Source of the DNA: Planctomycetota bacterium
GTDB taxonomy: Bacteria > Planctomycetota > Planctomycetia > JALXBF01
DNA length: 64,000 nucleotides
Assembly (NCBI GenBank): GCA_026991575.1
Contig: JALXBF010000183.1
Span: 1-64,000, forward strand
Reading direction: 5' to 3'
Of the stretch, positions 18,341-56,005 are shown piece by piece. The translations under genes were made by a program, and so were the position numbers. The notes under the pieces are model-generated. The model did not search any database. It was given only the letters and a program-made list of their open reading frames with translations, and was not told the DNA's origin. The stretch's first letter is position 1. Each line of letters starts with the position of its first letter.

Positions 18341-19644
18341 TCGACGCACGTATCTGGCTGCTCACAATCCGGCTCGGGCTCAAGAACCTCCTGCTGAACA
18401 AGCTCCGCAGCCTCCTGACCATGCTCGGCGTTGTGCTGGGCGTTGCCTCAGTCATCGCCATGCTGGCCATCGGGGAGGGCTCCAAGCGGGAGGCGATTGA
18501 GCAGATCCGCCGGCTCGGTGCGCGTAACATCATCGTCAGTAGCATCAAGCCAGGCTCGCGCGTCGAAGATGAACAGCCCGAGTCAACCGGTGAACAAAGC
18601 ATTGAGCTGGTCGCCGAGTACGGCTTGACCTTCGAAGACTACGAACGCTTCCTGAGCACCATTCCCACGCTGGAGCGGGCCGTACCCGTGATCCAGCTCC
18701 GCCGCGACGTCATGCGGCGGCAGCGGATCCTGGACAACGCCCGTGTGCTCGGCGTTACGCCTGAGTACTTTTCCGTGCGCAAGCTCAGACTGTACCGCGG
18801 CCGGCTCATTGTCGACCGTGATCTCAGGCAGCGCGCCAACGTTGCGGTGCTTGGGCCCACTGCCGCCCTGCGACTCTTCGCCCACCGCGATCCGCTTAAT
18901 GGCGTGATCTACATCGGATCGGACGCGTACCGGGTCGTGGGAGTGCTCCATTCCGTGCGTGGCACAGCCCCTGTGACAACCCGCACCGTGGCCGAAGAGG
19001 ACCGACGGATCTACATTCCCATTACCGCAGCGCGGTACCGATTCGGCGAGCTCCAGGTTGTGCGGGCGTCGGGCAGTATCGAGTTTGAGAAGGTCCAGCT
19101 TCACCAGGTTATCCTGACATGCCGATCGATGGAGTTGGTGGAACCCACGGCGACGATGGTCCAGGAGCTCCTGGAACGCAGCCACAAGGACCAACGCGAT
19201 TACGAAGTGCAGGTACCGCTGGAGCTACTCCGGCGGGCCGAGCGTGAGAAGCGGATCTGGAACCTCGTGCTCGGCTCCATCGCAGGGATCTCACTGCTGG
19301 TCGGCGGCATCGGCATCATGAACATCATGTTGGCCACCATCACGGAGCGCACTCGGGAAATCGGTATCCGTCGTGCACTCGGTGCCAAGCGCCGCCACAT
19401 CATGCTGCAGTTCCTGGTCGAAACGTTGGTGCTCTCCTGCATCGGAGGACTGGTTGGTGTAGTCCTGGGCGTGGCGATCCCGCTTTGGGTACAGCATGCC
19501 GTGGGGATTCGCGTGCACATCACTGCCTGGTCGATCGCCCTTGCGTTCGGCATATCCGCGCTGGTAGGCGTTACCTTCGGGTTATATCCGGCACGTCGGG
19601 CTGCGATGATGGACCCGATCGAAGCGCTGCGCCATGTCGGTTGA
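18337..19644 (+). CDS. ABC transporter permease (MacB/FtsX-like), no ATPase domain
   Basis: KLRSLLTMLGVVLGV, ISLLVGGIGIMNIMLATITERTREIGIRRALGA and GLYPARRAAMMDPIEALR. Confidence 0.93.
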   Translation: MIDARIWLLTIRLGLKNLLLNKLRSLLTMLGVVLGVASVIAMLAIGEGSKREAIEQIRRLGARNIIVSSIKPGSRVEDEQPESTGEQSIELVAEYGLTFEDYERFLSTIPTLERAVPVIQLRRDVMRRQRILDNARVLGVTPEYFSVRKLRLYRGRLIVDRDLRQRANVAVLGPTAALRLFAHRDPLNGVIYIGSDAYRVVGVLHSVRGTAPVTTRTVAEEDRRIYIPITAARYRFGELQVVRASGSIEFEKVQLHQVILTCRSMELVEPTATMVQELLERSHKDQRDYEVQVPLELLRRAEREKRIWNLVLGSIAGISLLVGGIGIMNIMLATITERTREIGIRRALGAKRRHIMLQFLVETLVLSCIGGLVGVVLGVAIPLWVQHAVGIRVHITAWSIALAFGISALVGVTFGLYPARRAAMMDPIEALRHVG

Positions 19645-20145
19645 AGCACGGCTTGCGCTGCTTCGGCAGCGTCGGAACGGATGGTCCCCTGGAACGTGGT
19701 TTCGCGCAGCAGGCAGGGCACTGGGGATAGGGAATCTGGCCACTGCCTCGGCCAGGTGAACTTCCCGCCAACTACGTTCCGCGGCAGGATCGACCGTTAG
19801 ACCCGCGTTGTCGAGCCGACGGCGGTGATTTACCCGTTCAGCCACCGGCTACCTGACAAACGTAGCGTCGGAGGCATCCAGCCCCAGTTGCTCTTGCGGA
19901 CTTCCGCCGGGTGGTTTATCAGTGCTGCCGTTGCCCGTCAGTGGAGGTACTGTCTGCCGGGCGGGCGGTTGGCCAGGCGCCCGCCACCGGCTTGTCACCT
20001 CGCCGGAAGCGGAGGCAAGCGGCGGAGGAACTCAGCATCCATGGAGCTGGTGGTCACAGCGCCATGCGCAGCACCGGCGGTCGGCGCCTGCGCCGGCCAG
20101 GAGCCGGCAGGTGGCCCGGAGTGGACACGGCCAAGGGGCCGTGTT

Positions 20146-23100: not shown

Positions 23101-23151
23101 ACGCAGTCAGACGCCGAGCCGGTAGGTGAGAATGATGAGCCGTTCCGCTGA
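20146..23151 (+). CDS. Large TolC-family outer-membrane lipoprotein
   Basis: Lipobox AAGC. ALLNSREYQAQKEQLY, EPLIQAERNLVYAAR, LDLPLNRKQQRNQYR and RDFLEAQ. It follows adaptor and permease genes. Start is uncertain (ORF open from 19825). Confidence 0.75.
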   Translation: MNVLLVTVLLWAAGCSRAFYRLRADREASQILQEVTAEKSWEVPPDFSIDPPPESRLYLGGDPDRPPLPPPYPQLYAYTLPVGSSSIPRPEQQPPGHKPDRQQPPEPAPRELLPPPAPESDTARPAVYLSFAAPAPRGVKPAVLQQPLPQGDPPQEPAQGGRPSAGPQRSPQVTQRQLQQERVRREITAQLFIAPLPSEAWHALPRSCLMRMLEFRTAREEYQRTFRSPPPAELRDPSPRLAFEQLFQLALLNSREYQAQKEQLYRAALAVSLARFDYDLKFTPTANGTTVDYLHFRSGGTTVNTLRLPTRLALQKLLWSGGDLLARLANDIVLTFNGPRGFESDVSSQLLLQLSQAVFQRDIVLEPLIQAERNLVYAARDYLRFRRRFFVQVATEYYELLRAYRQVEIDAQNYFSLVRAFEQALAEEQAGLQSRIQVEQIEQSMLQGRSSLIRTCNQLDNAIDAFKLTLGLPTEQPLNLDLEELRRLTEEDEIEVARERARRAARWLEQQLDQRLPDQAALVNASAMLAQRIRDWLQLRRQRGEPVELLERIEHHLVRLQVEQARFTALQLHANLHQLVATTEFVVPPELVVQRAIDYLEASLELGERQMRAAELAGLDPKQLKSLRGMVDRLAEELARLRGRFSEAIGQADLAAIEQLRDDAERIARSAEQLVARLDRAIGLDPAEEPQQRRQRIGQLVNDVHEAARRLLDEAGHGLVPVEITMDNAMLTALFNRLDLMNERGRVADARRDIKYAADDLRSVLNLQATQLIRTKADRPFGFTFDESSTQLRLILDLPLNRKQQRNQYREALIDYYAAVRRLMEREDSVKLSVRRQLRNLALARALYEISVASAALAAERVVNTRMQLALGLPGVAARDFLEAQDAYRRALSAVADNRIGYITDRMQFFLDLELIELDQRGMWPQFKEMNYQPTPVLDWPDDALPVYGTIPEFLWLSEELRATERAGYPPFRHADWHMLPEGDPTQSDAEPVGENDEPFR

Positions 23152-24649
23152 AGCAACGGTCTACACGATCGGACACTCGACTCGCCGCTGGGAAGAGTTC
23201 CTGGAATTACTTCGCGAGTACCGGATCCGTTGTCTCATTGACGTACGCCGCTTCCCCGGGTCCAGGCGTCATCCTCATTTTGACCGCCAGCAGCTGCGCG
23301 CGGCGCTAGCCCAGGCCGGCATCGCGTACGAACACCGCGAGGAATTGGGTGGTCGTCGGACCCAACGGCTGCCTGATTCGCCCAACGCCGGCTGGCGCGT
23401 GGCTGGGTTCAATGCCTACGCCGATCACCTGCGCGGCACCGAACCGCAGAACGCGTTGCGGCAGGTACTAGAGCAGGCACGGCACGAGACCGTAGCACTC
23501 ATGTGTGCGGAGGCAGTGCCATGGCGGTGCCATCGGCAAATCCTAGCCGACCAGCTTGTGGCCTGGGGGGCGCGTGTGTGCCATATCATCGGGCCCGGAC
23601 AGCTTCAGGTGCACACACTTAGCGCGCATGCCCGAGTCGGTGCCGATGGCCTCGTCTACTACCCGGCGCAGCCCGAACTCCCGTTTGATCCACCGGCCGA
23701 TGATCCCGCAGGCGATTGTGACCGCCAGGGGGTGCCACCGTCGACCGAGGCAAGGGCAACCGATGGTGGCAACGAACCGACGGCCACTGTCGTTGCTGAC
23801 CCGGCATGGGAAGAGTTGGCCGACCGTCTTATCGGCCAGATCACGCTTGTGGTCGGGCGGGTCGGATCGGGAAAAAGTAGCTTCATCCGCTGGTTGGCCG
23901 AGCGGTGGCACGAACGGGGAGCACGGTTTGCCGTGTTGAGCTGTGACATGGGGCAGCCGCTGATCGGTCCGCCGGGTGCGATGTGGGCAAGCCTTGGTCC
24001 GCCCGACGCCATCTGGAAGGGCTGGTTTATCGGAGACAACTCACCAGTGGGAAACCTGGTGCCCGCCGTCACCGGGGCAGGACGGCTGGTGCGGGAGTTG
24101 ACCGCTGCAGGGGCCGACACCGTGCTGATCGACACAACCGGGCTGGTCGATGGCGGCTTAGGCCGGATGCTGAAGCTGCACAAAGCGGTGGCTGCGGGTG
24201 CGACGGCGGTCGTGGCCCTTGGGGAGGATGCCGCCATTGCTCAGATTACGGCGTTGCTTGAAGCCGCCGGACTGCGTTGCCACCGCCTGCCTCGCTCGCC
24301 GCACGCGCGCGACCGCGACTGGGAGGAGCGGCGTCGCTTCCGCGAGCAGCGGTTCCGCGCTTACTTTGAGCAGGCCGTGTTGACACTGTATCCGGCCGAA
24401 GCGGTCATCACCATGCACTGGGAGCCGGGGCTGTCTCCAGCTGCGGCCTCCCTGGCACCAGGCCGGCTGTGCGGGCTGCTGGACGAGCGATTCTTCTGCC
24501 TGGGCCTCGGGATCATCGAATGCCTTGCCCCCACGGGCGTCTTTGTCCGCAGTCGGGTGTCAGCCCCTGACCGTGTTGCCCACGTGATCTTGGGGCGGTT
24601 GCAGGTCACACCAGACGGCCGTGAGCTGGGGCGGATTAAGCCGTCGTGA
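23132..24649 (+). CDS. DUF488 domain fused to a Clp1/Grc3-type P-loop polynucleotide 5'-kinase
   Basis: N-terminus has [21 protein letters not shown] and [14 protein letters not shown] (DUF488). C-terminus has Walker [27 protein letters not shown] and [14 protein letters not shown] (Clp1 family). Confidence 0.8.
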
Positions 24650-28498: not shown

Positions 28499-30619
28499 TC
28501 AGTTGCTTTCGCGAGCCACAAGCACCTCCTGGATGACGCCTTCCAGGATCTGATCGCCGTGATGTTCGACGATTCGTTCGATCTGGTCGCGCGACAGGCC
28601 GGCCTGCTGCGCTTGACGGACCAAGTCCGCTGCCCGTGCAAAGTAGCGTTTCCTGGCGGCGGGGTCGTCGAGTTGCCGTGCCACGGATGCAAAGCAGCGG
28701 GCCGTCTCAATGAACCACTCCGGACTGACCGATCCGGGAGGGTAGCGCTGCAGGAGGGCAAGGGCTCTTTCGGCGTCGGCTAGCGCGGCATCGAGGTTGC
28801 GCACCGAGGTTTTCGATGTGCTGTAGACCAGCGAGCGTGCGATGTACGCGTAGAACTGGGTCGGATCCAGCTCGATCGCTCGGGTGTATTCGGCTACGGC
28901 TTCAGCATCGCGGTCCATGCTTGCCAGCGCAGCGCCTATGTAGTAGTGGGCGATGGCGGGGTTCTCGTAGCCGAGCTCTAGCGCCTTTCGCATCGCCTCA
29001 ACCGCCTTCGCATAGTCCTGCGCACTGTAAGCCTCGGCACCGCGGGCGAACCACTCCGGGGCCGTCTGCGGCTCGTCCTGCTTGAGGCCGTACCATGTGG
29101 CCAGCCCAATTGCTGCCACGGTTGCCGCACCCACTGCAGACAGCGCCAGCCGCCGTCGGTTCCGCCACAAGAACCGCTTGCTACGCAGAAGTGGGCTACG
29201 GCGTGGGTAGCCGGGAATGATTCGGTCGGCCAGGAACTCATCCAGCGCTGAGACAAGCTCCTCGGCCGTGCTGAGCCGGTGTTCGGGGTCGGCGGCCAGA
29301 CACTTTAATAGCAAATAGTCCAGGTCGGGGGGCACAGCCGGGTTACGGCGGCGGAGCGGCTCGGGTCGGCGCAGACGGCTGTCCAGCAGGGTCGCCAGTA
29401 GCCGGTCGCGGTCGTCGATTGGCTCTGGCGTGCCAAAGGGTAGGGCCCCCGTCAGTAGTTCGTAGAACGTAGCTGCCAAACTGAACAGATCTGATCGCGG
29501 GCCGACGCCGGGCCGCTCCGCTGCAGGCGCCTCGCGCCCGCGGCGCAGTGCCTCGATCTGCTCGGGCGGCATGTACGGCAACGTGCCACCGATCACCAGC
29601 GTCTGATGGCCGTCGTCCATGAGGTTGGTCCACGAGAGGTTGAAGTCGACCAGGAGAGGTTGCCCGTCTGCGGTAATCAGGAGGTTGGAAGGCTTCAGGT
29701 CCAGGTGCAGGATGTTCCTCTTGTGGGCATGGCCCAGGGCCGAGGCGGCGTGGCGCATGAGCCAGGCGGTGGCGTAGACGAAATCACGCTCGGCCGGGAA
29801 CCGGTCCGTCCAAGAGGGCACGTGGCTGGGGGCAGGCAAGTCCTTAAGCCGAGCTTCCGCGCCGGTCAGCCAGGCTGATGCGGTACGCGGAAAACGATTG
29901 CCACCGGCCCACGCGGTTGCGACTGTGGCCATCGACACGGCCGCCTGGTAGGGCATGCAGATTGCGGTCAGCCCGGTCGCTTCATCACGGTGGACGCTGT
30001 AGATTGGGACAATGTTCGGATGGGCCAGCCGCGCGAGCGTCTCGTGTTCGTGTGTTGGCCCGGAGGTGATCTTCACGACCACGAGCCGGTTGGCCAAGGA
30101 GCTTTGCCGAGCCAGGTACACGCGGGCGAATGCCCCCTGGCCGAGCAGCTTCACGAGTTCAAAGTCGAGGAACCGCTCACCGGGTTCCGGCAGCCATGAT
30201 CCCGATCGGGCCAACCAGGACAAGGCCGATGGGTTGCTGGCCAGCATGCTGTGCAGGCAGAACAGACGGGCGAGCGAGTTCTGCAGCGACGGGAAGCGTT
30301 GGGCGTAATCATCCAGGCCTGGCGTCTCACCCCGTGCCTTCCGGGCACAGTACTCGGCGTAGACAAGGTCTGCCAGCAGCTCGGGGTCTTCGCGCAAAAC
30401 AGGGAACCGCTCCAGGTACTGCTCCAGCCGTACCGGTTCGCCGTGGGCAATGCGTTCGCGCAGTTCCCGGGCCACCGCACCCGCCAGGGTGGCAGCCGAT
30501 GGCGATGGCGTGCGGGCTAGTAGCTCCGAAAGCCGCTCCCGGACGGGCGTTGCCGACCAGCTATCGGACGTCCTGACCGATTGGCCCGAACGCCTACTTG
30601 CGTCACTCGGCTGCATCAC
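28499..30619 (-). CDS. Hanks-type Ser/Thr protein kinase with a TM helix and C-terminal TPR repeats
   Basis: LGQGAFARVY, VVVK, HLDLKPSN, DFN (in place of DFG), GTLPYMPPEQ and SDLFSL. TM LALSAVGAATVAAIGLATWYGL, then TPR helices. Confidence 0.92.
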   Translation of the reverse strand: MMQPSDASRRSGQSVRTSDSWSATPVRERLSELLARTPSPSAATLAGAVARELRERIAHGEPVRLEQYLERFPVLREDPELLADLVYAEYCARKARGETPGLDDYAQRFPSLQNSLARLFCLHSMLASNPSALSWLARSGSWLPEPGERFLDFELVKLLGQGAFARVYLARQSSLANRLVVVKITSGPTHEHETLARLAHPNIVPIYSVHRDEATGLTAICMPYQAAVSMATVATAWAGGNRFPRTASAWLTGAEARLKDLPAPSHVPSWTDRFPAERDFVYATAWLMRHAASALGHAHKRNILHLDLKPSNLLITADGQPLLVDFNLSWTNLMDDGHQTLVIGGTLPYMPPEQIEALRRGREAPAAERPGVGPRSDLFSLAATFYELLTGALPFGTPEPIDDRDRLLATLLDSRLRRPEPLRRRNPAVPPDLDYLLLKCLAADPEHRLSTAEELVSALDEFLADRIIPGYPRRSPLLRSKRFLWRNRRRLALSAVGAATVAAIGLATWYGLKQDEPQTAPEWFARGAEAYSAQDYAKAVEAMRKALELGYENPAIAHYYIGAALASMDRDAEAVAEYTRAIELDPTQFYAYIARSLVYSTSKTSVRNLDAALADAERALALLQRYPPGSVSPEWFIETARCFASVARQLDDPAARKRYFARAADLVRQAQQAGLSRDQIERIVEHHGDQILEGVIQEVLVARESN

Positions 30620-31202
30620 GTTGCTGCTTCAGTTCCTGCTGAGCGGAGCTAACCACACGCCGAGCGGTTCGCTCATCTAGCCCGAGTTGCTCGGCAATCT
30701 CTACAAAGGTGTATCCCTGTGCTCGCAGCATCAGGATCTGCCGGTGTACCTGCTTGCGCCGTCGTAACAGCTGCTCGAATTCCTCGCGGGCTGCCACGAC
30801 ACGGCTCGGCGTCGGATCGGCTGCGTCCAGTGCAGGGCCCGTCTGTTCCTCGTCTCCATCGACCGGAACCTCCAGTTCCATGTTTTTTTTCTGGCTCCCC
30901 AGGTGGCGACGGACCTCGTCGATCACCTTGCCACGGGCTACCACCGCCAGGAACTGAGCGAACCGTTCCGGGCTTGCAAAGTCGACCTCGCCCCGGGCTA
31001 GCTTGCCAAAGACATCCCCCCACACCGACTGGACAAAATCCATCGAGTCAAACCGGGTGCGAAGGCGATCGGGCAGCTTCATCCGTACGATCCGCCGTAC
31101 GTGTGGCTCAAATTGCGCCACCAACTCCTTGGCCGCTTCCTCATCGCCCTGCCGTGCCTTTTCGATGAGTCGTTGCAGAATCTCCCGGTTCGGCCCGCTC
31201 AT
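30603..31202 (-). CDS. ECF sigma-70 factor of the kinase-associated planctomycete type
   Basis: GDEEAAKELV, DSMDFVQSVW, linker DPTPSRVV and region-4 HTH GYTFVEIAEQLGLDERTARR. GGAGG RBS. Overlaps the kinase start. Confidence 0.9.
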   Translation of the reverse strand: MSGPNREILQRLIEKARQGDEEAAKELVAQFEPHVRRIVRMKLPDRLRTRFDSMDFVQSVWGDVFGKLARGEVDFASPERFAQFLAVVARGKVIDEVRRHLGSQKKNMELEVPVDGDEEQTGPALDAADPTPSRVVAAREEFEQLLRRRKQVHRQILMLRAQGYTFVEIAEQLGLDERTARRVVSSAQQELKQQRDAAE

Positions 31203-31549
31203 GCACGCCCAACCTCCGGTACTTCGCCAACGTGCCGCTTCCACCCCGAAACTCATCCCTTAGTGTACCAGAACAGCCGACACGGTTCGAAGGGGCCGGC
31301 AACACGGCACGCTGGCAAATTAGCCAAGCCCTACTGGCCGCACCGGCAGCAGCAACGATGCCGACTGCGGCAACAGGTGTCGGACGCGCGACGTAGAGCA
31401 GGGGGGCCAGACCGGGCGCAACAGCAGCGGCCGGAGCCGACGCTCCGGCCGCCGCTCGGGCGGGTCGTGAGGCGGCGGTTGGTGTGGTTGCTATGGTGCG
31501 ACGTCAGACCGCTCACGACCCGTAGCTCGACACGCCAGGCGGGCGCGTG

Positions 31550-31789
31550 TTAGGGAGTGCTGGAGCCGCTGTCGCTCGTGCTGGTGTCGGTGCCGCCGTC
31601 CGTGGTCGAACTATCGCCGCTGTCACCGCCACCACTGCTGGGCGGCGGCGGAGGATCGGGCCACGGCATCGGATATGGCACCGCTCCCGGCAGAACGCGG
31701 CCACCGAGTTGCTCCATGTGCAGGAGTGGACGCTTGGGCCGCCGCACACGACTGCGGTCGCGGCCAAAGATCAAGTCGAATAAGGACAT
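31550..31789 (-). CDS. 79-aa microprotein with a planctomycete export-type leader and a Pro/Ser/Gly/Asp-rich tail
   Basis: GGGGGA RBS. Basic leader ending HMEQLGGRVLP resembles the LEQLE.RVLL leaders of two neighbouring genes. Confidence 0.6.
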   Translation of the reverse strand: MSLFDLIFGRDRSRVRRPKRPLLHMEQLGGRVLPGAVPYPMPWPDPPPPPSSGGGDSGDSSTTDGGTDTSTSDSGSSTP

Positions 31790-32244
31790 GTGAGTCCCCC
31801 CTAGAACGAACACACCAACAGACCGACATGCAGGGAACGTCTCTGGGGTCGAGCTGCAAACCGGCGCCGAGATGCAACCAGTCCCCCGTTCGGCCGGCGT
31901 CCGCGAATGACGTGCTTTTCACCGGCCACTGAAACGTACCATCTCCTTCGCCCCAGAGCGGCCGCGTCCGCAGAAATCACACCGCTACAACTGTGACGGC
32001 ACTTCCAACCGGACCCCAGGCACCCCGATCACTGCGGAAATCGCTCAAGTGGGTCGTCCGATTGACCCGCGGTCGCCAACCCCCGATCCTGTGATCCAGT
32101 CCACGATCCGGGCCGATCGCCTTCTCCCTCTTGCGTTAGCGGTATGCTGGATCCGGTCCCAGCGGGTCCCCCGCTCTCAAAGCGAGCGCGACGACCGGTG
32201 CGCTGCATGCGTCGTGTCGGATGGCTGGTACCAAGAAGGGATAA

Positions 32245-33669
32245 GTGATGCTAACCGTAGATGACCGGACCGTGGCTTGCCTTCGGGAGCTCCACGGGGC
32301 GTACGAGGCGCAAGAGGCGACAGGAAAGACCCGGGGCTACATCGCTGCTCACGCCGTCTCGTTACTCGGCCCACTGTCGCCTTGGTGGCTCACCTTGCAT
32401 GCACTCCGTCTTGCTCGCGACGCCCGGCCCGATCTTGTCCCCGAGCGGTACCTGGATACCGCTGCTGAGCCGACCGGACAGCCGGGACTCTGCTTCACAC
32501 TGTTCGCCTGGTGTTGCGAGTTGAAGCCGGCGCCCGGTGACCAGACACTGCTGCGGCCATCCGTGGTGCTTCCGGTGCGCTGGCGCCGAGGCCATCGGCA
32601 CGATCGGACGCTGCCGGCGGGATTGCTGGACGTGGCCGACCGTGTTCGCCGCTTGATGAACGCGGATGATTTCGGGCTGACCTGGCCTGACCGGCTCACA
32701 GGCCTTGATGCATCCGGCCTGTCGGCCACAGCCGATTCCGCGTTCGTCGCACTTGCTGCCGGCCTGCTTCTGGCGAAACACTCCGGCGAGGGCCGACCCA
32801 ATCCAAGGGTCTGGGCGACCGGTGCCTGGGACGAGCAGGACCGGGAGGTGGACCGGGTCGAGCAGGTGGAAGCCAAGATCCAAACGTGCATCCAATTCGG
32901 AGCCGAACGGATCTTCGTGCCTGCTGACGACGCGCGGCGGGCACGACGCTACGTGCGTAAGTTGGCACGCGATCCGGACATCATCCAACCGCTTCCGGTA
33001 CAGGCCGACCTGGACCGAGTAGTCGGCACGGTTGCCGTCGAGTTCTGGCTGGAGCCTCCGGTGGATGCACGGCTCAATCTGCTCATCTCCTATTACAACT
33101 TCCTGGCACGCTACGGCCGACACCGCCTGACGGACTTTGCCCTGAAACGGCTCATCAATGCAAGGGCCCAGCGTTGCAGGGAGCGGTTACCTGAGAGCCT
33201 GAAGTTACTGCCAGATCGTAATCCGGTGCTCGTCACAACGCTCAGTCTGGCTCCCGACCTGATCGAGTTGGCACAGGCTGTGTTTCGGCCCAGGCACGTC
33301 GTGTTGATCTACCTGCCTCGGGACCCAGGGCCGCGCAAGCGCTATGGCAGGCTGATCGAGCAGTGGAAAAACCGGGTTTCGGTCGACGAGTACGCGTTCG
33401 AGCCAGACGATACGCAACGACCTGACCGCTGGGCTAAAGGCCTGTACGAGCACCTGACCACCAAGTTCGCGAACGCGCCGATCCTGGTCGACCACACGCC
33501 TGGGCCGAAGCCGGTATCTGTGGGACTGCTAGTGGCTGCGCCACCCGGCGTGCATCACATCTACTTGGACCACCGGTACACGGCTGACTCGGTGCCGGAG
33601 CCGTTGCCGGTGGGTTACGTGGATTTCTCTCAGTTCCTGGCAGGGCGAACCATCGGTGGCCGGCCCTAG
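32245..33669 (+). CDS. Putative Lon-type (S16) protease domain fused to a C-terminal CARF domain
   Basis: ADS165AFVALAAGLL...VWATG...VEQVEAK211IQTCIQFGAERIFVP parallels the Lon Ser-Lys domain. VLVTTLSLAPDLI...RPRHVVLIY...ILVDHTPGPKPVS matches CARF motifs I and II. No AAA+ module. Confidence 0.75.
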   Translation: MMLTVDDRTVACLRELHGAYEAQEATGKTRGYIAAHAVSLLGPLSPWWLTLHALRLARDARPDLVPERYLDTAAEPTGQPGLCFTLFAWCCELKPAPGDQTLLRPSVVLPVRWRRGHRHDRTLPAGLLDVADRVRRLMNADDFGLTWPDRLTGLDASGLSATADSAFVALAAGLLLAKHSGEGRPNPRVWATGAWDEQDREVDRVEQVEAKIQTCIQFGAERIFVPADDARRARRYVRKLARDPDIIQPLPVQADLDRVVGTVAVEFWLEPPVDARLNLLISYYNFLARYGRHRLTDFALKRLINARAQRCRERLPESLKLLPDRNPVLVTTLSLAPDLIELAQAVFRPRHVVLIYLPRDPGPRKRYGRLIEQWKNRVSVDEYAFEPDDTQRPDRWAKGLYEHLTTKFANAPILVDHTPGPKPVSVGLLVAAPPGVHHIYLDHRYTADSVPEPLPVGYVDFSQFLAGRTIGGRP

Positions 33670-33699: not shown

Positions 33700-36600
33700 C
33701 TACAGGCTACCGAGCAAGTCGGCAATTGCCTCGTCGACCGTCAGCTCATAGTCACCGCGCTGGCCGGCATGCCCTTCGACCCGGACCCAATAGCGGCCGG
33801 CGGACAGCTCCAGCACCATGTCGTACCGGTAGGTGGGATCGGCGGCCTCTGCTGTGGCCAGCCGGCCCAGCACGCTGCCGTCGGCTGCAATCACGGTCAA
33901 GACCGAATCGAAGCCCAGCGTTCGGTTGTCGACCTTGATGCGATACGTCCCGTTCGCAGTGACCTCAAAGCTGAACATGTCCCGGTCGCGTGCCCGCTCG
34001 ATCCGTCCGGCGCCAATCCATAGCACCCGGGTGCCGAACGGCACACGTTCCATCCGTGTCGCGCGTGCGCGTGAGCCGGCATGGTCGTCGCGAGCGGGCT
34101 TCAGATACTGGGCCGATAGCACGTAATCACCCACTGTGTTACGCTGGCCGCGTACGAGAATTCGGTACTGCCGCCCTTGCCGGACGGTGAACTCCACATG
34201 GCTATCCAGCGTGCCACCATAGTTGCCGTTCCGGGCGACCGTGCGCTTTCCGAGTTTGACCACGATCATCGGGTCCAGCGGGCTCTGTGGTGTCGTCACG
34301 TCGATTGCCACGCGGCCATTCTTGACCGCTCGGAACGCATACCAGTCCCTGTCAGTCGGCTCCTCAATGCGGCTGCGTAGGACGACGGGCTCATCGCCGA
34401 CGGGCAACCGGTGTGCCTGACCCGGACGGTCACCGACATCGTCGGCCAATTCAGGGATCTCCGTACCGGCTCCGGCCGGAGGCGGATCGAAATTTCCAAC
34501 GACCGGTTCGGACCGGCGATCGCCAAAGCGGTAGAAAATATCCTGATCGACCAGCGGGATGCCGGGGGTACCGGTCGGAGGTGGTTCGAACTGGCCGTCA
34601 CGGTCAACGTCCAGGAACCATTCTGCCTCGCGCTCCTGTGGGTTGATCTTGAAGATGCCGATCTTCGCCTGGCCGCGCGCGTTCCAGTCTGCTGCTACAG
34701 GCCGCTTCCGTCCGCCCACCGGGGGCGATTCTGCGATGACCAGGTCGCCCGCGTTCCGCTGGAAGTTGTCATCCAGGTCGAGCAGCCACCGGTTTACTGG
34801 TGTTGTGCCCGGCTGGTACGTCCGGTACACACCGACATCGCCGTCGCCATCACCATCCCAATCCCCGGCAACCGGGTGGCCTGCCATGTTCGTGGCGATC
34901 TGCTCACCGGCATCCAGCGTCATGTTACCGTTCAGATCCAGCCACCATGTCTTGTTAAAGTACAGCCCCACTTCGTCCACGCCGTCGCCGTTCCAGTCCG
35001 CGGCGATCGGCTGCGCGTTGACGTTGCCGAAGGTGAAGACGGCATCGCCGCCGTCCAGTGTGCCGTTGCCGTTGACGTCCAGCTCGAACATGTACGTGCC
35101 AGCGCGCAGGCCGTAGACGCCGATTTCATCAAAGCCATCGCCGTCCCAGTCGCCCGTAACCGGCCAGTCTCCCGGCTGCCCGAATCGCCAGACGATGTCC
35201 CGATTCGTGGCGTCCCGGTTGTCCGGGTCAAAGATGCCGTTACCGTTGAGGTCTACGAACCAGAGCCTGTCGTTGAAGACGGCGATCTCGGGCCGTGAGT
35301 CTACGGTGAACCGCCCGACAAAATCTTCACCTGGCACGCCGTCGCCCGAAGGCAGCACCTCGGCAGCGGTTCCAGGGCCGGTCGCCTGCACATCGCCGTC
35401 CAACCGGTTACCAGCTCGATCCGCGAGGCGGTCCGTGATTGTCAGCGTGAAGCGGTCGTCGGGCAGAGGTGTGGCGAAGACCAGGCGAACGGTCGTGCGC
35501 GCGATGTCACCGGCAACGGTTGCGTCGAGAAACAGCACGTCTGTGATCAGGATATGCCCGTTGGCGTCGCCAACGAGGCGGTAGTTGCCGGGTGTCGTGG
35601 CCAGCACCGGGTTGACCGCCGGATACACGAAGCCCACCGCGCCGTTGACCCGCACCGGCTCATCCTCGAACGTGATGTCAATCGCTTGAGTCAGGGGCGT
35701 CGGGCCAAAGGTCGGGGCCAGCGGCTTGGGCGTGAAGACCGGCACGTTCGGCCCACCCGACAGCGGCACGTACTCGATGTTCGTCACCCGTGGCCCGCGG
35801 GTGTCCACGAAGATCTCCAGTGACTGCGGGCTACTAACGTTGCCGGCCAAGTCCTCGGCCGTGACGAAGATGGTCCGCAGGCCGTCCTGCGGGAAGTAGC
35901 TCGGGTCGTTCAGGTCGATTTCGGTGCGGAATTCCCAGAGTCCGCGCGGGAACTGATCAGACCCATCGGTCGGAACCGCGACCGTCTCACCGAGGAACAG
36001 GTCGCTGCCTGGGTCGAGCAGCCCGTCGCCGTTCAGGTCCGCATACACGCGCACGATGGCATTCGCTTCGGCAACACCCCACCAGGTCGGCGTCGTGTCG
36101 GCCGTGATTCTGTCGACGAACGTGTCCGGCTGATCAACGATGCCGGTGTCGGAATCCGGGTGCAGGCCATCATTCGCCACCGACGGCTCACCGAACGCAA
36201 CCGGCGGAGCAACCGTATCGACGAAGATCTCCAGCGACTCGCTTCTCGGACCGAATCCGCGACGTGTCGGATCGGCCGGGTCGGTCATTTCGACACGGGC
36301 AGAAATGAAATGGCTCCCGTCGGGCAGGTCGAGACCGGCTCCGTTGAGCGCGTTGTCGAAATCAAACACATAGACACCCGGAACCGCGCTCGGCTGGGCA
36401 AAGCCGACCGGTTCCTGTGGGTCGATGCCCGGCACCTGTGGGTCGCCCTCCACAAAGACCGCGACGCGATAGCCTGGGGTCGTGTCTGCCGGGTCAATCG
36501 ACGGGTTGAACGGAATCGGAATCACCTCATCCGGGGGATCTTGCGGGCCCGGATTGCCGGGCAGATCCTGCAGCAGGATGGCGTCGTCCAGGCGGAGGAC

Positions 36601-39600
36601 GATGGTCGGTGAGTTGTCGCAAGTGACGTTGTCCGTTTGGTTCCTGCCCGTGTCGCTGTTCAGAGCCGACGGTGGATCATCGGTGCAGTCGTAGTTCGGG
36701 TCGGTTGGCAGATCGTCGAGTTCCAGATCGTATGGCGTGGGGGGGAGGTCGTTGATGATGGTCAAGTCATAGGCGTTTACGACCGGTGATGTCGGGCTTC
36801 CGGCCGGAGCCCCGAAGACTCTCACGTAGTACGTCTCGCCAGCCACGACCGGAATCCGCACCCGCTCGTCATCATCTGTGTCGTTGGTCCCGAACAGCGG
36901 CCCGTTGCCGGCGATGAGGGTGCCGTCCTCGTCGTAGATCTCCAGCTGCAGATCACCGCCAGCCGGGAGTAATGCCGGGTCAAACTGGCGGAAATACGCC
37001 TGCACGTCGAGGGTCCCCGTCTGGTAAGCAACCACACGGAACCAGTCCTCATCGGCCGGCACGAAGCGGTGCTCTCCCCAGTTCGGGAAGATAACAAGAT
37101 TCGACACGTTGATCCGTTCACCCGAACCCAGGAAAGCGGCTGTTGCCCGGAACTGGTTCGGTTCGTACAGGTCCGGGCCCGCGATCAGCAGGTTGTTGTC
37201 TCGGCCGACGCCCGGGTCAGTGATCGGCGAGACGACCTCGATGTCGCGGTAACTGATATCCGGCATCGCAACCGCGTTGCGGTAGACCCGAACGCGACCC
37301 TGGTCCGCGTCGCGGCCGCGGTACAGCACGACGAAATCGCTTGCTGGCAGGGGGGCACCGCCCGCCTGGGCCACGACCAGCGCATCGCTCGCTCCCGGGG
37401 GACCACCGTCGACAGAAACCGAGCGGTTGTACGGCTGACCGTCGGTCGAGGTGGCCGCTGCCGGAGCCGGGATGACCAGGACGGTGTCATTGCCAAGACC
37501 AGCTTCGATCGAGACATGTTCTACCGTATCCGCGAGCTGGACCGGTTTTAGCACCGTGCCCGCTGCGTTTTCCACGGAGACCACTCGTGCTGGGCTGTCC
37601 ACAGTGATCACGTCGTGATTGTTCGTGCCGGACACGACAACGGTGTCGGCCACGGCGTCCAGCAGATCGACGGTGAACGTCCCTGGAATGGCATCGAACC
37701 GGAAGCTTGTCACAAGGCCATCCAGTGTGAACCGCCCGCCGTCAGCGGCATGTGGGCGATACCGTAGTGTGTCGTCGATTACCTCCCGGCCCAGGACCGT
37801 GAGCGTGTCGGCGCCTCCGCCTCCGTCGATCTGGACCGACTCGATGCCGGCAAACGATATCGTGGAACCCACGCCGCTGATTGTTTGAACGTCCAGGTCA
37901 ACGCTGATGGCATCCGCTCCAGCGGTCCCGATCACCTCCAGGCTGTCGCTTTGCCCAGGACCACCACCGTCGACGACAAGGTCCAGGCCGCCGGTGGGGT
38001 AGGCCGCGAGGCTGTCGTCGCCGTCGAGCAGTTCGAAGGTGACCGGGCTGAGCTGATGCAGCACGACGTTTGCTCGGCCCGCGGTCGTGACCACCGAGCC
38101 ACTGATGGCCATTGCGTCCGACTGGTCGGTGCCACGCAGTGTCGCGGTGCCGCCTGTGGCAGGTCCCGCAAGATGTAGCGCCTTCGGCGGCATGGTGCCT
38201 CCGGTCAGTCCGCGGTACCGGATCTCCAGGCCGTCTGCCCACAGCGTGCCACGGTCGGTGGCCACGTCGGGCGCGTGGAGATACTGTTCAGCTTCGGTGA
38301 TCCACAGGTTTGCGGTCGGCCCGGCCACATCGATGGCCAGTGTTTCGGTGCCGATGAACGCCACGGGCGGCTGCGCAATGCCGGCAATCCGGTTGACGCT
38401 GCGGTCGATGGTCACCGCCGCTGCCACACCCGTTGCCTGTAGCGTGTCGGAGCCGGCCTTCAGATCGATGGTGAGCAGGTCGTCGGAGTCCAGCCCGATC
38501 AGCTCGATCGTCGGGCCGACACCGGTGAGCTCGATCCCGGTGCCGACGAGATCCACGGTCAGCACGTCGTCGCTGCCTGTTCCGAGCACGCGCGCGGTCT
38601 GACTGGTCCCCGTGCCGAAGTCGGCAACAATCGTGCGCAAAGCAGTAGTGGTGATGTCCTGCATGACCAGCCCGTCGTCACCAGCATCCAAATCGAGATT
38701 GAGGTCTTCGACACCCGCTAACGTGACGTCCGTTCCATCGACTGTCACCGTGGCGACAGTTCCGTTGGCGCCTAGCACCACCGCTTGGTTACCGCCATCG
38801 CCGACCATCCGGGCCTGGTCTTCGCCGTCTCCCCCGATGAAGTAGTCGGCAGCGTCACCACGCCCCCAGTGCAGGAGATCGGGACCGGCACCCCCGTTGA
38901 AGACGTCTGCGGCACCACCCGACCAGAAATGATCCTCTCCGTCTCCTGCGTCGAACTCAATCGGCGTGCTGGTCACGTTGATCGCATCAACGAGGTCCTT
39001 GCCCGGGCCGGTGCGGATTGTGATCCGGTTCAGGCCCGTTGCGACCACGTCCTGCATGAAGCGAACACGATCGTTGGGCGAGTCGAGTGGGTCGTCATTG
39101 GAGGCCAGGTCAAGAGCCAAGTTGGTAACGTCGTAGAACTCGAGCGTCTCGAACGCCACGCCGCCGCTCGTTCCTGTGATCTTATTCGACGTGTTGGATA
39201 CCTTGACGATCTGGATATCGTCGTTGCTGTTTGGGCTGATGAAAGTAAACTCGGCGAAGCCGCTGATTACGATCGGCTCAAGGTCCTGGAAACGTATGCT
39301 GCCACCGTCCATCTGCAGGGTGCCCGCGCCGGTGACGGCCGGATCGGGCAGATAGCTGCCCACTGACGAGCTACCGATCAGGATGATCCTGTCGCCCCCA
39401 AGGCTGTCGCCGCGCCCGTCGAAATCAATGCCACCTACAGGAATGGACTGCCCGGCGCTGTTGTCCACGACTAACCAATCGGCGTCATCAGACCCGGTGA
39501 TGATCAGCCGCTCGACGGCATCGTATAGTAGCGTCCGGGAAAGCTGGCCATCTAGGAACACCTCCAGCATGGGGCCGTTACGGCGAATCAAGAACTCGTC

Positions 39601-41091
39601 GAAGTCGTTGCCGCCGGTATTGGTGCCGTCACCGTAGAGGTCGTCCGCGGAGATGTAGATATCGGACTTGCCAAAGCTGAGTGCGGCGACTCTCGTCTGC
39701 CAGCCACTGCCTGGGCTGTCGATGTACTGGGTCGTGTACCAGAACGTACGGCCATCGGCCGGATCGACGGTCATGCTGCTGTAGTCACCCCAGCGCGGAT
39801 TACCACTCTGCCAACCGCCTCCGGTCACAATCGTGTGCTCGCCGTCGGGCAGCGCACCGAGTGGATCGCCCGGCTGTCTACCGGCGTAGCGGATGCTTGG
39901 ATAGACAGTCTTGCTCGAGACGCTGTAGCCCAGTGCGATTTCGCCCAACTCATTGATGGCCGTCGATCCCATCCAGTGGTGTTCGTCATCGGGGGCGTAT
40001 GTACCTTCCTGGTACACGGTCCAGGTGGGCGTTCCGGAACGGCGCAGTTCGAACCAGCGGATGCCGGCTTGTTCCTCCGCAGTGCCGCCGTCGTAATCCG
40101 GCGTACTGTCCTCGTTGGCATCGACCGTGAAGCTGCCCACCAGCGCCTCATAGCCGTCGAACACCCGGTAGGTGACTCGGTAGTGCATGTAGTGGGGAAG
40201 GGCGTCGATCTGTTGGGACGTGCCCGGCTGCTCGATGTCCTCGCGGCCAGGGTCACCGAGCCAGTAGTCAAACTCCTGAATCGGCACGACCTGAGCCAGC
40301 GTGTAGGTCGAGTTAGCTGGCGTGACGAAGTCGACGTCGAACTGCCAGATCTCAAGGAAATCGGCGTTCGGGTCAGCCGACCCAGGGTTCGTCACTTCGT
40401 CGTCGACCTGTCGCACGAAAATGCCTGGCGTGCCGGGCGGTGGAGGGGCACCGTCAAGATCAACAGGCATGATGTGGTTGCGAGCCCAATTAGGCAGATC
40501 GACACCAGATCGCCGCACCATCTTGGCAGGGTTGCCCTGGAGCATGGCGGAGCGCTCCAGGGCATAGACCGGGTTGTCGCCCTCGTTGGTGCCGATGTAG
40601 TACGCGTCCGGCCACACGGCAAGCTTGGGATAGTCGGGGAAATTGGGCGTCTCGAACTCGTATGCGTACCAGTCGTCCGGATCGGACGTGGGCACGCCGG
40701 TCTTGGACACGTATACACAGAGTGCATTGTCGACGGCGTCGTCGACAAACTCCAGCAGCACCCAGCGGTCAGCGAGGTGGTCGTACGCGACGATCGGATC
40801 ACCTCTGCCGTTAGCGCAGTCAGACCCAGGGGGAGCAAGTGAGTCGAGCAGGAACGTGTCGAGCGTGGTTCCGTCTTTCTGGTAGATGGCCACGCGCGTG
40901 CCGCCCGCTGCGTTGGTGGCCTGCACGTAATGGTTCGGGCCGACATCGCCAACGGTGTCCGACGGCCGTGCGCCAGTGAAGCCGATCCCGTCGAAGTTGA
41001 CTAACGGCGTGGCGAAGGCAAGCAGTACGCGCTCTTCGAGCTGCTCCAGCCGAGTGAGACGGCGGGCTCCACGGCGCTTGGCGATGCGCAT
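33700..41091 (-). CDS. Giant (2463 aa) exported surface protein with Ca-binding Gly/Asp repeats, Ig-like, FG-GAP-like and PPC-like domains
   Basis: Leader LEQLEERVLL, an N-terminal beta-rich domain (DVGPNHYVQ, FPDYPK, RWGDYS), GGAGPD/GGDGED repeats, GDWDGDG repeats and C-terminal DRDWYAF/DRDMFSF modules. Confidence 0.8.
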   Translation of the reverse strand: MRIAKRRGARRLTRLEQLEERVLLAFATPLVNFDGIGFTGARPSDTVGDVGPNHYVQATNAAGGTRVAIYQKDGTTLDTFLLDSLAPPGSDCANGRGDPIVAYDHLADRWVLLEFVDDAVDNALCVYVSKTGVPTSDPDDWYAYEFETPNFPDYPKLAVWPDAYYIGTNEGDNPVYALERSAMLQGNPAKMVRRSGVDLPNWARNHIMPVDLDGAPPPPGTPGIFVRQVDDEVTNPGSADPNADFLEIWQFDVDFVTPANSTYTLAQVVPIQEFDYWLGDPGREDIEQPGTSQQIDALPHYMHYRVTYRVFDGYEALVGSFTVDANEDSTPDYDGGTAEEQAGIRWFELRRSGTPTWTVYQEGTYAPDDEHHWMGSTAINELGEIALGYSVSSKTVYPSIRYAGRQPGDPLGALPDGEHTIVTGGGWQSGNPRWGDYSSMTVDPADGRTFWYTTQYIDSPGSGWQTRVAALSFGKSDIYISADDLYGDGTNTGGNDFDEFLIRRNGPMLEVFLDGQLSRTLLYDAVERLIITGSDDADWLVVDNSAGQSIPVGGIDFDGRGDSLGGDRIILIGSSSVGSYLPDPAVTGAGTLQMDGGSIRFQDLEPIVISGFAEFTFISPNSNDDIQIVKVSNTSNKITGTSGGVAFETLEFYDVTNLALDLASNDDPLDSPNDRVRFMQDVVATGLNRITIRTGPGKDLVDAINVTSTPIEFDAGDGEDHFWSGGAADVFNGGAGPDLLHWGRGDAADYFIGGDGEDQARMVGDGGNQAVVLGANGTVATVTVDGTDVTLAGVEDLNLDLDAGDDGLVMQDITTTALRTIVADFGTGTSQTARVLGTGSDDVLTVDLVGTGIELTGVGPTIELIGLDSDDLLTIDLKAGSDTLQATGVAAAVTIDRSVNRIAGIAQPPVAFIGTETLAIDVAGPTANLWITEAEQYLHAPDVATDRGTLWADGLEIRYRGLTGGTMPPKALHLAGPATGGTATLRGTDQSDAMAISGSVVTTAGRANVVLHQLSPVTFELLDGDDSLAAYPTGGLDLVVDGGGPGQSDSLEVIGTAGADAISVDLDVQTISGVGSTISFAGIESVQIDGGGGADTLTVLGREVIDDTLRYRPHAADGGRFTLDGLVTSFRFDAIPGTFTVDLLDAVADTVVVSGTNNHDVITVDSPARVVSVENAAGTVLKPVQLADTVEHVSIEAGLGNDTVLVIPAPAAATSTDGQPYNRSVSVDGGPPGASDALVVAQAGGAPLPASDFVVLYRGRDADQGRVRVYRNAVAMPDISYRDIEVVSPITDPGVGRDNNLLIAGPDLYEPNQFRATAAFLGSGERINVSNLVIFPNWGEHRFVPADEDWFRVVAYQTGTLDVQAYFRQFDPALLPAGGDLQLEIYDEDGTLIAGNGPLFGTNDTDDDERVRIPVVAGETYYVRVFGAPAGSPTSPVVNAYDLTIINDLPPTPYDLELDDLPTDPNYDCTDDPPSALNSDTGRNQTDNVTCDNSPTIVLRLDDAILLQDLPGNPGPQDPPDEVIPIPFNPSIDPADTTPGYRVAVFVEGDPQVPGIDPQEPVGFAQPSAVPGVYVFDFDNALNGAGLDLPDGSHFISARVEMTDPADPTRRGFGPRSESLEIFVDTVAPPVAFGEPSVANDGLHPDSDTGIVDQPDTFVDRITADTTPTWWGVAEANAIVRVYADLNGDGLLDPGSDLFLGETVAVPTDGSDQFPRGLWEFRTEIDLNDPSYFPQDGLRTIFVTAEDLAGNVSSPQSLEIFVDTRGPRVTNIEYVPLSGGPNVPVFTPKPLAPTFGPTPLTQAIDITFEDEPVRVNGAVGFVYPAVNPVLATTPGNYRLVGDANGHILITDVLFLDATVAGDIARTTVRLVFATPLPDDRFTLTITDRLADRAGNRLDGDVQATGPGTAAEVLPSGDGVPGEDFVGRFTVDSRPEIAVFNDRLWFVDLNGNGIFDPDNRDATNRDIVWRFGQPGDWPVTGDWDGDGFDEIGVYGLRAGTYMFELDVNGNGTLDGGDAVFTFGNVNAQPIAADWNGDGVDEVGLYFNKTWWLDLNGNMTLDAGEQIATNMAGHPVAGDWDGDGDGDVGVYRTYQPGTTPVNRWLLDLDDNFQRNAGDLVIAESPPVGGRKRPVAADWNARGQAKIGIFKINPQEREAEWFLDVDRDGQFEPPPTGTPGIPLVDQDIFYRFGDRRSEPVVGNFDPPPAGAGTEIPELADDVGDRPGQAHRLPVGDEPVVLRSRIEEPTDRDWYAFRAVKNGRVAIDVTTPQSPLDPMIVVKLGKRTVARNGNYGGTLDSHVEFTVRQGRQYRILVRGQRNTVGDYVLSAQYLKPARDDHAGSRARATRMERVPFGTRVLWIGAGRIERARDRDMFSFEVTANGTYRIKVDNRTLGFDSVLTVIAADGSVLGRLATAEAADPTYRYDMVLELSAGRYWVRVEGHAGQRGDYELTVDEAIADLLGSL

Positions 41092-41661
41092 AAAGCACCC
41101 CCGGCGTCAAGCCAGAGTTGGACTGTGTGTTGGACACCGCACTGCGGTCAGGATGACAGGTATTGCGGTGTGGTTGTCGCAGCTAGCAGAGTGCGGGTCG
41201 CAGAGGTGGCTTCGGAGTCGCGCGCTACCGAGACCAGTTCTTGACCCAATCTGCTGGAGCCGCCATCGCACCGGCAACACCAACAGCCGAAACCTTAACT
41301 GATTGCACCCGCACTGTCAACCCCTTTTGCGACACGCCACTGCGCCCGACCGTCGCAATTTGGCAAGAGTTCACGAGGCCCATCGTTCCTGACTGGCCCA
41401 CCCATGGGCTCGCGATCAGCACGCCTGCTCGGCTCCTGCGTCGTCGGGGACAGCCACCCGCCGATCAGACAATGGCGACCAGTTCAGGGTTATCGCCGCC
41501 AAGATGTCGGCACCAAGGCGCACCGCACGGGAAAGAGTTGCGTATCGCGGGGTAGTGGCGTGAACCTGTCTCCCAGCCATCCCCGCCTGCACGTTCCCAG
41601 CTACGGCGCGGTGACCGGAAGCTCAAGCGGTCGCATTCCTGCAGTTCGACGGGGGTCAAAG

Positions 41662-41734
<73 letters not shown>

Positions 41735-42034
41735 GTGAGTCAGCGGCAACGCAGATCACTGTCATCTTATGCCCCACGGCCCACATGGCAAGCACCCGAG
41801 CCGGCGGTCATCCGCTGGAGTCTTCAGACCCATCCCGATCCGTCCCCCCTCGAACGCCAGGTACGGATGAGACCGACGGTGGTCTCCCCGTTAGGCTGCT
41901 CGATGGCCCGGGATTGCGGTCCAACTAGCCATACGATTCCGCTGTAGCAGGAGCCTTGCACCCGAGACTGGCCATGCCTGCTGGCGGGGCCGCGCGGCCA
42001 ACGGGACGCATGTGGGCGGAGCGGGCGTGGCGGG

Positions 42035-51110: not shown

Positions 51111-51546
51111 AGGCGGCTGGGCCCCTGTGGCACTTCGGCCTCGGCAGCGCTCGAGTGTCCACGGCTGCGTGGTGGCTTTTCCCGGTAGAACTCCGCGCAC
51201 GAGGGCTGCACCTGTTTTCGCGGGCGGAACTCCTGCCCCCGCGCACGCTTTGCCCGTTGATCCCTTGCCGCGTTGGCAGAAGGAGCAGGGACTACGATAT
51301 AGTGGTGGATCGGATGACTTGCTGACCGTTGTGGGAGTGGGCGGCACGTGGTGCCGTCGGGCCAATGCCTGCCGGTGTCGGTTGTGGGCGCTGCGGTCGA
51401 TGAGGTGGCCAGCAGCTGATGGTGCTGTCGGGGGTGGCCGGGCGGTCGGTCGACGGTCTAGCTGGGATCAGGGCAGGGAACGTTGAGCATTGGCAGGGCG
51501 GCGGTCGGGCCGATGTCGTCAACGACTGCACTCGGGAGCCGGATCG

Positions 51547-55983: not shown

Positions 55984-56005
55984 ACCGACCGACCGGAGGA
56001 AGCAG

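Follow-up and report, generated by a model that had tools for sequence, protein, structure and literature searches.

A solo CARF-Lon gene in a planctomycete genome: a predicted cyclic oligoadenylate-sensing protease from a family with partner genes in a CalpL-like layout

The proteases activated by cyclic oligoadenylates (cOA) that have been characterised so far all sense their signal via SAVED domains. CalpL, of the CalpL/CalpT/CalpS system, is an ATPase-less Lon protease with a Ser-Lys pair, carries a cOA sensor and is linked to type III CRISPR, features which it shares with the CARF-Lon proteins, predicted since the CARF census. SAVED-CHAT and the type III-E Craspase-Csx30-RpoE system likewise turn the recognition of a CRISPR target into a specific proteolytic cut, which in some cases releases a sigma factor, but they use caspase-like (CHAT/TPR-CHAT) proteases where CARF-Lon uses Lon. 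Craspase is activated by RNA binding and not by cOA. Here we analyze a CARF-Lon gene found in 64,000 nucleotides of a Planctomycetota bacterium (positions 1 to 64,000, forward strand, of contig JALXBF010000183.1, assembly GCA_026991575.1, lineage Planctomycetia; JALXBF01), the whole stretch being referred to as the window. The gene is a solo member of a catalogued family that is known from predictions only, and we consider that it probably encodes a stand-alone, soluble, ATPase-less Ser-Lys protease which senses cOA, most likely cyclic tetraadenylate (cA4), and makes a specific cut in a dedicated substrate.

In a CalpL study (10.1101/2024.05.08.593097), CCaCalpL is reported to cleave CCaCalpT within 202-LAAA, at the A204-A205 bond, into fragments of 24.3 and 10.9 kDa, and the CalpL preprint mentions that CalpL was 'originally termed Lon-CARF' yet has a SAVED4 domain. 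The section 'CARF-Lon effectors' of a 2022 review (PMC9704534) presents these proteins as bioinformatically predicted, with speculation on the cleavage of an essential target or on promiscuous cleavage, and a 2024 effector survey (PMC11229360) includes no characterised CARF-Lon enzyme. The full-text literature searched contains none either, the CARF census (Makarova 2020) lying outside it, with supplements that may already describe partner genes. Hence the statement of the preliminary description of this DNA, that no characterised example is known, holds across that literature; it had also left room for an architecture already catalogued, as it indeed is both in PADLOC (PDLC01981) and in the review, so that its estimate of novelty was too high.

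The CARF-Lon gene and its parts are as follows, with residues numbered along the 474-residue frame.

32248-33669 (alternative start 32245), + strand: CARF-Lon gene (open reading frame; PADLOC PDLC01981, E 6e-77; AlphaFold2 model).
32245-32469, + strand: N-terminal helical region, residues ~1-75, which overlays the helices preceding the protease domain in full-length Lon structures.
32470-33054, + strand: Lon (S16) proteolytic domain, residues ~76-270 (VIA fold match, profile match).
32737-32739, + strand: codon of Ser165, predicted nucleophile (invariant in 79/79 homologues; aligned to the Ser of the LonA GPSAG motif).
32875-32877, + strand: codon of Lys211, predicted general base (invariant in 79/79; aligned to LonA K790).
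33220-33645, + strand: single CARF domain, residues ~326-467, after a helical linker at 271-325 (VIA, PADLOC).
33490-33510, + strand: CARF ligand-site motif D416-H-T-P-G-P-K422 (aligned to the Csm6 motif; conserved).

The open reading frame (ORF) 32245-33669 given in the preliminary description is real, since it runs uninterrupted on the forward strand; it yields 474 aa from the GTG at 32245 and 473 aa from the ATG at 32248 (product P0001). The ATG appears the likelier start, since 473 aa is also the length of the database copy (P0002) and the homologues start at a Met aligned to residue 2. A consensus scan around the gene finds neither promoter nor terminator. GC content is even, 0.63-0.66, over 31-41 kb of the window, so that composition shows no trace of recent transfer.

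Queries with the single sequence recover very little: Pfam and NCBIfam give 0 families at E <= 0.1, phmmer against the PDB gives chance matches only (best E 0.028, to eL18), a word-indexed search gives just one relative, and a metagenome scan gives none, with 9 loci when a two-sequence alignment is the query. The back-translated PxVWATGAW pattern hits 33 loci over the genome contigs, only 2 of them true relatives. The PADLOC model PDLC01981 ('CARF_m2--CARF_LON') matches residues 23-454 over profile positions 11-399 of 408 (257.8 bits), whereas several other PADLOC CARF models (Csx1/Csm6, CARF_2M, Can1) cover residues 306-453 only; the name CARF-Lon of this family is presumably that of the CARF census. 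An exhaustive homologue search covering 1.84 billion representatives yields 410 clusters at E <= 1e-3, of which 235 reach <= 1e-10 and 13 reach <= 1e-30; their proteins almost all measure 420-500 aa. From the 410 clusters, 79 homologues make up the family alignment and profile used below. W113, S165, K211, D416 and G420 are invariant in all 79, and at least 90% of the sequences retain T418. The AlphaFold2 model of the protein is of high quality, with a mean predicted local distance difference test score (pLDDT) of 95.5 and a predicted template modelling score (pTM) of 0.91.

Concerning the protease domain, VIA aligns the model with Archaeoglobus fulgidus LonB (1z0e_A) at Z 14.2, with 178 residues of model 45-291 aligned at a root mean square deviation (rmsd) of 3.1, and with 6on2_A at Z 14.1; over the LonA/LonB proteases of MEROPS family S16 (1z0e, 6on2, 1rr9) the Z values are 12.9-14.2. 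The 79-homologue profile (positions 151-254) matches LonB 1z0e with E 4.5e-10, together with many further LonA and LonB proteolytic domains. The window itself encodes a LonA at 51753-54314, in which Pfam identifies AAA, Lon_lid and Lon_C, and hhalign aligns the family profile with it over residues 163-260 (probability 70.5%, E 3.9e-5). This alignment pairs Ser165 with the Ser of GPSAG (LonA S747), Thr192 with the Thr of MTG, and Lys211 with LonA K790, which by E. coli numbering would be the catalytic Lys. The preliminary description had compared the same stretch by eye with this LonA, and both the Lon-like assignment and the Ser-Lys spacing it gave, 46 residues against 43 in LonA, are borne out by hhalign, by the fold match and by the profile.

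It had further reported the lack of an AAA+ module, in agreement with Pfam, which returns no AAA match at E <= 0.1, and with the absence of a strict Walker A motif (GxxxxGK[ST]) from the protein; residues 22-29 do form a loose AxxxxGKT, but the homologues do not share it. The N-terminal helices of the model lie at 7-21, 27-48, 51-60 and 67-74, and the VIA alignments to 3k1j_B, 7fd4_A and 3m6a_A start at model residues 10-13. Thus, CARF-Lon has the fold of LonA/LonB, with Ser, Thr and Lys aligned to the catalytic residues, but neither the AAA+ unfoldase nor the N-terminal substrate-binding domain, and its control would be exerted by a nucleotide signal and not by ATP hydrolysis. CalpL does not appear among the matches listed (60 for the profile, those of Foldseek and 50 for VIA), but the two Lon domains may nevertheless be related.

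The C-terminal sensor is equally well defined. VIA superimposes model residues 271-467 on Thermus thermophilus Csm6 (5fsh_A) with Z 14.5 (182 aligned, rmsd 3.4) and residues 305-466 on cA4-bound Cam1 (8t65_A) with Z 13.9, followed by cA4-bound Can2 (7bdv_A, Z 13.0), Csa3 (Z 12.7) and Can1 (Z 12.2); the Foldseek ranking is consistent with that of VIA. The family profile (279-451) matches Csm6 5fsh with E 3.4e-13. Hence the fold searches suggested in the preliminary description return the two domains it had proposed, Lon and a C-terminal CARF, and the D-x-T-x-G-x-K motif that it had pointed out is present at 416-422. D416-H-T-P-G-P-K422 aligns with DLTSGTK of T. thermophilus Csm6, where K422 corresponds to K137 and, in a chain deposited as the K137A mutant (8jbc), to the Ala; K422 is nearly invariant only in an alignment of the 14 closest homologues.

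With the D-x-T-x-G-x-K motif common to both, T. thermophilus Csm6 (5fsh, 8jbb, 8jh1) is the best match to this sensor in sequence as well as in structure, but its effector is a C-terminal HEPN RNase, while that of CARF-Lon is a Lon protease placed N-terminal to the CARF domain. Such a C-terminal HEPN domain is lacking here, the PADLOC Csx1/Csm6 and CARF_HEPN models covering only the CARF part (residues 326-453, with the Csx1/Csm6 models confined to 329-432) with their first ~100-150 positions, and in the model the chain ends 7 residues past the CARF domain. The sensor is one domain of ~140 residues, with no space for a second lobe, and matches the single CARFs of Csm6, Cam1, Can2 and Csa3. CalpL differs in that its SAVED4 sensor contains two fused CARF-like lobes per chain and in that it forms cA4-driven filaments of monomers; for CARF-Lon a homodimer is expected instead, because the sensor is a single, Csm6-type CARF domain and not SAVED4. 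As to the ligand, the nearest CARF structures (TtCsm6, Cam1, Can2, Csa3 and Can1) are those of cA4 binders and a fusion of CARF-Lon to a Crn2-type domain exists (see below), Crn2 being described as cleaving cA4, so by analogy the ligand of CARF-Lon is most likely cA4.

The family is strongly linked to type III CRISPR. Its distribution was followed in two overlapping samples, of 401 genomes of the phylum and 401 of the class. In the class sample there are 28 CARF-Lon holders and 48 genomes with Cas10, 23 having both, which means that Cas10 occurs in 23 of 28 holders but in just 25 of 373 genomes without CARF-Lon (odds ratio 64); the survey of homologue genomes and neighbourhoods suggested in the preliminary description thus ties the homologues to type III CRISPR. 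The phylum sample agrees, with a Cmr2-type Cas10 match in 4/5 full-length holders compared with 30/401 overall, the genome of the fifth holder being 75% complete. In 6 of the 28 class-sample holders the CARF-Lon gene lies <10 kb from cas10 on one contig.

Direct fusions and close neighbours point in the same direction. In G210 (locus L029, contig C12, 9191-11263, +) a CARF-Lon protein of 690 aa ends in a STIV_B116-like domain of the Crn2/AcrIII-1 ring-nuclease family (residues 587-682, Pfam E 3.4e-20), its gene being placed between a divergent III-D cas10 operon and a Cas6-RT-Cas1 (RT, reverse transcriptase) fusion gene. In G135 (L032, contig C1, 7528-10884, -) a protein of 1118 aa has a CARF-Lon unit (PDLC01981 E 1.4e-25, residues 155-539) N-terminal to a III-D Cas10 that spans residues 564-1038 when the three best models are combined. 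The gene heads a III-D effector operon, and its product would be a signal maker and a signal-sensing protease in a single chain. In G082 the CARF-Lon gene is followed by a Csx1/Csm6 gene.

These fusions bear on a reading in which the Lon domain is inactive and the protein acts mainly through CARF, damping the signal as a cOA sink or as a ring nuclease. Foldseek also returns the non-proteolytic Lon-like domain of RadA (5lkq, 8rxc), self-limiting CARF effectors have been described, and Csm6 of T. thermophilus, the closest CARF structure, reportedly degrades its own activator. However, the invariance of Ser165 and Lys211 in 79/79 homologues, together with the conservation of Thr192, is hard to explain without catalysis, and the addition of a Crn2-type ring nuclease domain in one relative suggests that CARF alone is not a ring nuclease. 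We regard this reading as the least credible of the alternatives considered.

The window supplies a presumed source of the signal as well, in the form of a complete type III-B effector operon (4111-11421, -) flanked by housekeeping genes and located 21 kb from the CARF-Lon gene.

8746-11421, - strand: cas10/cmr2, presumed cOA source (TIGR02577 9.5e-52; Pfam Cmr2_N and Cas10-Cmr2_palm2).
7547-8818, - strand: cmr3 (NCBIfam, PADLOC).
6630-7550, - strand: cmr4 (NCBIfam, PADLOC).
6185-6601, - strand: cmr5 (NCBIfam, PADLOC).
4111-6360, - strand: 749-aa ORF with a Cmr6 match (residues 193-373) and a Cmr1 match (400-580) (NCBIfam, PADLOC).

Cas10 keeps the GGDD cyclase motif ('YAGGDD' in the translation), and cmr6 and cmr1 appear to be fused in the last ORF. 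The window holds no CRISPR array, cas6 or cas1/2. Elsewhere the genome has four arrays on 4 contigs, all with one 37-nt repeat, a III-D operon on contig C32, RT and Cas1 genes beside the array of C96 and a CARF-HEPN gene on C117.

The parallel with CalpL/CalpT/CalpS extends beyond the protease, as most CARF-Lon relatives adjoin a dedicated partner gene and often a gene for a sigma factor resembling the extracytoplasmic function (ECF) type. In G330 and a Gemmataceae genome, a sigma-like gene, a 256-aa gene and a ~365-aa partner precede the CARF-Lon homologue, and hidden Markov models (HMMs) built from such neighbours recover the module, with minor variations, in more loci, including those of the closest relatives G771, G667 and G405. 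The full module consists of a sigma-like gene (235-354 aa), a 'middle' gene (~250 aa), the partner (360-445 aa) and CARF-Lon; the extra middle gene, found in many of the loci, has no counterpart in CalpL/T/S. In a survey of an unselected set of 30 CARF-Lon copies from the class sample, with flanks of 1.5 kb each, 20/30 are directly preceded by a partner-like ORF of the same strand. The preliminary description, right in its reading of the domains, had missed this usual partner and sigma-like context and its absence from the window.

At the thresholds used, neither Pfam nor PADLOC recognises the partner. In its model (pLDDT 82.4), a linker of low confidence (270-307) connects a helical N-domain to a beta C-domain (307-412), and this linker contains an (L/V/I/M)-A-A-x motif. 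In an alignment of 18 partner sequences, the Ala-Ala of the motif is in register in 14/18 and lies one residue off in 2 others. As in CalpT, an (L/V)AAx motif is thus followed by a C-terminal domain, here of ~110-120 aa, which recalls the cut of CCaCalpT at LAA|A into 24 and 11 kDa; on the other hand, CalpT is composed of MazF and DUF2080, whereas the partner has an all-helical N-domain. It is mainly because motif, position and fragment size parallel CalpL/CalpT that the partner is read as the substrate.

A complex prediction for the CARF-Lon protein of G405 (497 aa) and its upstream partner (416 aa) was rated as weak support, with a score of 0.56 (runs 0.56, 0.50 and 0.58; best control 0.00), with at least 48% of contacts agreeing between runs and partner pLDDT of at least 72, and is not counted as evidence. 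The mark applied is passed by 116/157 solved complexes and 2/215 mismatched pairs, 18/157 and both mismatches doing so at <= 0.60, counts which are only rough with own alignments. A metagenome protein of 853 aa (P0022), the sole instance of its kind, comprises a full partner at residues 4-359 (HMM E 7e-53) and then CARF-Lon at 410-833; it could be either a natural fusion or a read-through from sequencing error.

The partner survey also bears on the idea of a cOA-activated promiscuous protease with no dedicated substrate, which would degrade many host proteins and stop growth (abortive infection). This is one of the two speculations offered on CARF-Lon in the section of PMC9704534 cited above, classical Lon is described as having little sequence specificity, and the window copy has no partner gene beside it. 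Against this, 20/30 relatives have a dedicated upstream partner whose linker carries a conserved, Ala-rich motif, an unfoldase module that could deliver substrates is absent from the protein, and CalpL, the only characterised cOA-Lon protease, is site-specific; overall we consider promiscuous degradation quite improbable.

The mechanism we favor is therefore that of a specific protease with a dedicated substrate, and its steps may be outlined as follows. The signal would come from the III-B Cmr complex 21 kb away and from the III-D locus on another contig. Two CARF domains would pair around one cA4, and this pairing would switch the protease on. The activated enzyme would then make one specific cut and not degrade proteins in general. 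For most relatives, the upstream partner is the likely substrate and would be cut at the linker (L/V/I/M)-A-A-x motif. As the window copy is without a partner, any substrate of it must be encoded elsewhere, and, if active, it would cut such a substrate, the candidates being partner-like proteins that stand without a protease in CRISPR-linked loci of the same genome.

The genome encodes three CARF-Lon paralogues, the solo one of the window and two with partners on contig C115. The partner-like genes of C115 lie at 50860-52140 and 19585-20808, and upstream of one of the two C115 paralogues there is an ECF-like sigma gene, then a 407-aa gene without family. There are six partner-like proteins for the three proteases. 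Four of them have no adjacent protease, and three of these four reside in CRISPR-linked loci.

C32, 13289-14863: partner-like protein without protease, at the end of the III-D operon.
C96, 35077-36318: partner-like protein without protease, near RT-Cas1 and array.
C117, 4808-5851: partner-like protein without protease, beside the CARF-HEPN gene.
C34, 23629-24906: partner-like protein without protease, at a contig end; the Ala-Ala motif is absent.

A sigma-like gene that matches the C34 partner sits at the end of contig C12 (7995-8729), and C12 and C34 may adjoin. A more ambitious version of the specific-cut reading takes the solo protein as a trans-acting hub protease, which upon cA4 production by III-B or III-D would cut the partner-like proteins of C32, C96 and C117 at their (L/V)AAx linkers. 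We hold this to be rather unlikely. If true, one sensor protease would have several outputs, including sigma-like transcription factors, as a CARF-based multi-substrate version of the CalpL/T/S switch.

Several observations weigh against a cOA-gated, partner-cutting protease. Unlike CalpL, the window copy has no adjacent partner or module sigma factor: homologues of the partner, middle and sigma-like genes are absent from the entire window, and tblastn of the 1-kb upstream gap finds no remnant of a partner gene. More generally, 10/30 copies of the survey lack an upstream partner, although among these, apart from the window copy, one is located at a contig edge, another has a flank of 864 nt only and a further one is a C115 paralogue whose partner lies two genes downstream. 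For the partner fold, Foldseek returns nothing at E <= 1e-3 and the best VIA matches (Z 8.5) are generic helical bundles, and an 'anti-sigma' role of the partner is read from gene position only. The sigma-like proteins are borderline, with TIGR02937 scores of 28-44 bits (cut-off 42.9) in 5/6 type-1 proteins scanned, and the version beside the closest relatives of the window protein has no family match; the sixth type-1 protein has only a weak match, to NCBIfam CAS_III-E_sigma ('type III-E CRISPR-associated RpoE-like sigma factor', E 8.3e-10). Kinship among the genomes and overlap of the samples make the Fisher p-value overstate the Cas10 association, the effect size being still plain. Finally, cOA binding, dimerisation, activation and substrate are all things we infer.

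Two further points, that 5/28 class-sample holders have no Cas10 match at the threshold used and that the CARF-Lon gene lies 21 kb off the cmr operon, outside any cas operon and surrounded by unrelated housekeeping genes, also speak for a sensor that answers a ligand not made by Cas10, in a protein independent of CRISPR. We find this very unlikely in view of the Cas10 frequencies among holders and non-holders given above, of the proteins in which CARF-Lon is fused directly to Cas10 or to a Crn2-type domain, and of a ligand-site motif that is that of cA4-binding Csm6.

The immediate neighbourhood suggests one more candidate target. The nearest upstream gene is a divergent ECF sigma gene (30603-31256, -), followed by a Ser/Thr kinase gene with TPR repeats (28499-30619, -), and the protease could act on this unit, for example by cutting the kinase or an 80-aa protein encoded upstream of the sigma gene, as a local, CalpS-like output. 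The genome has 22 ECF-type matches in 4.96 Mb, which by our own estimate makes a chance adjacency roughly 1 in 100, and the family often travels with sigma-like genes. However, this sigma gene is divergent and belongs to the ordinary, kinase-paired type of planctomycetes; in the module sigma-like HMM search the window sigma does not reach E 1e-3, and hence is not a homologue of that family. Moreover, the sister genus (G405, contig C412; L116) keeps the sigma-kinase pair, with 67% and 57% identity, and there the site bounded by the sigma gene and the window 41404-41928 homologue contains neither the CARF-Lon gene nor the 2463-aa gene described below. Because the pair occurs in the sister genus without the protease, the adjacency is lineage-specific and probably fortuitous, and we consider action on the sigma-kinase unit highly improbable.

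The 80-aa ORF itself (31550-31792, -), which closely precedes the ECF sigma gene, has no family match. Its ATG follows a purine-rich stretch, and its product has a basic N-terminus and a tail rich in Pro, Ser, Gly, Asp and Thr. On the other side, convergent with the CARF-Lon gene, a 2463-aa gene (33700-41091, -) encodes a protein with Big_13 and C-terminal PPC domains.

Taken alone, the gene is an ordinary member of its family; the interest lies in the CalpL-like partner logic and in the surplus of partner-like proteins in this genome. With two type III systems, three paralogues, six partner-like proteins and a clear candidate cut site, the genome offers a compact test bed. One question raised is if a Lon protease can be gated by dimers of CARF domains, another if transcription in Planctomycetes is reprogrammed by CRISPR signalling.

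Two other loci of the window are worth recording. At 23126-24649 (+), a 507-aa protein combines DUF488 (22-144) with a Clp1-type P-loop domain (244-416), and a homologue is found at the syntenic site of the sister genus. At 55243-56836 (+), a rhomboid protease gene is followed by a gene for an SDH-type ClpP-like protease; the same pair comes directly after a Gemmataceae CARF-Lon gene (L061, 10968-12787, +), and it is probably a common planctomycete gene pair.

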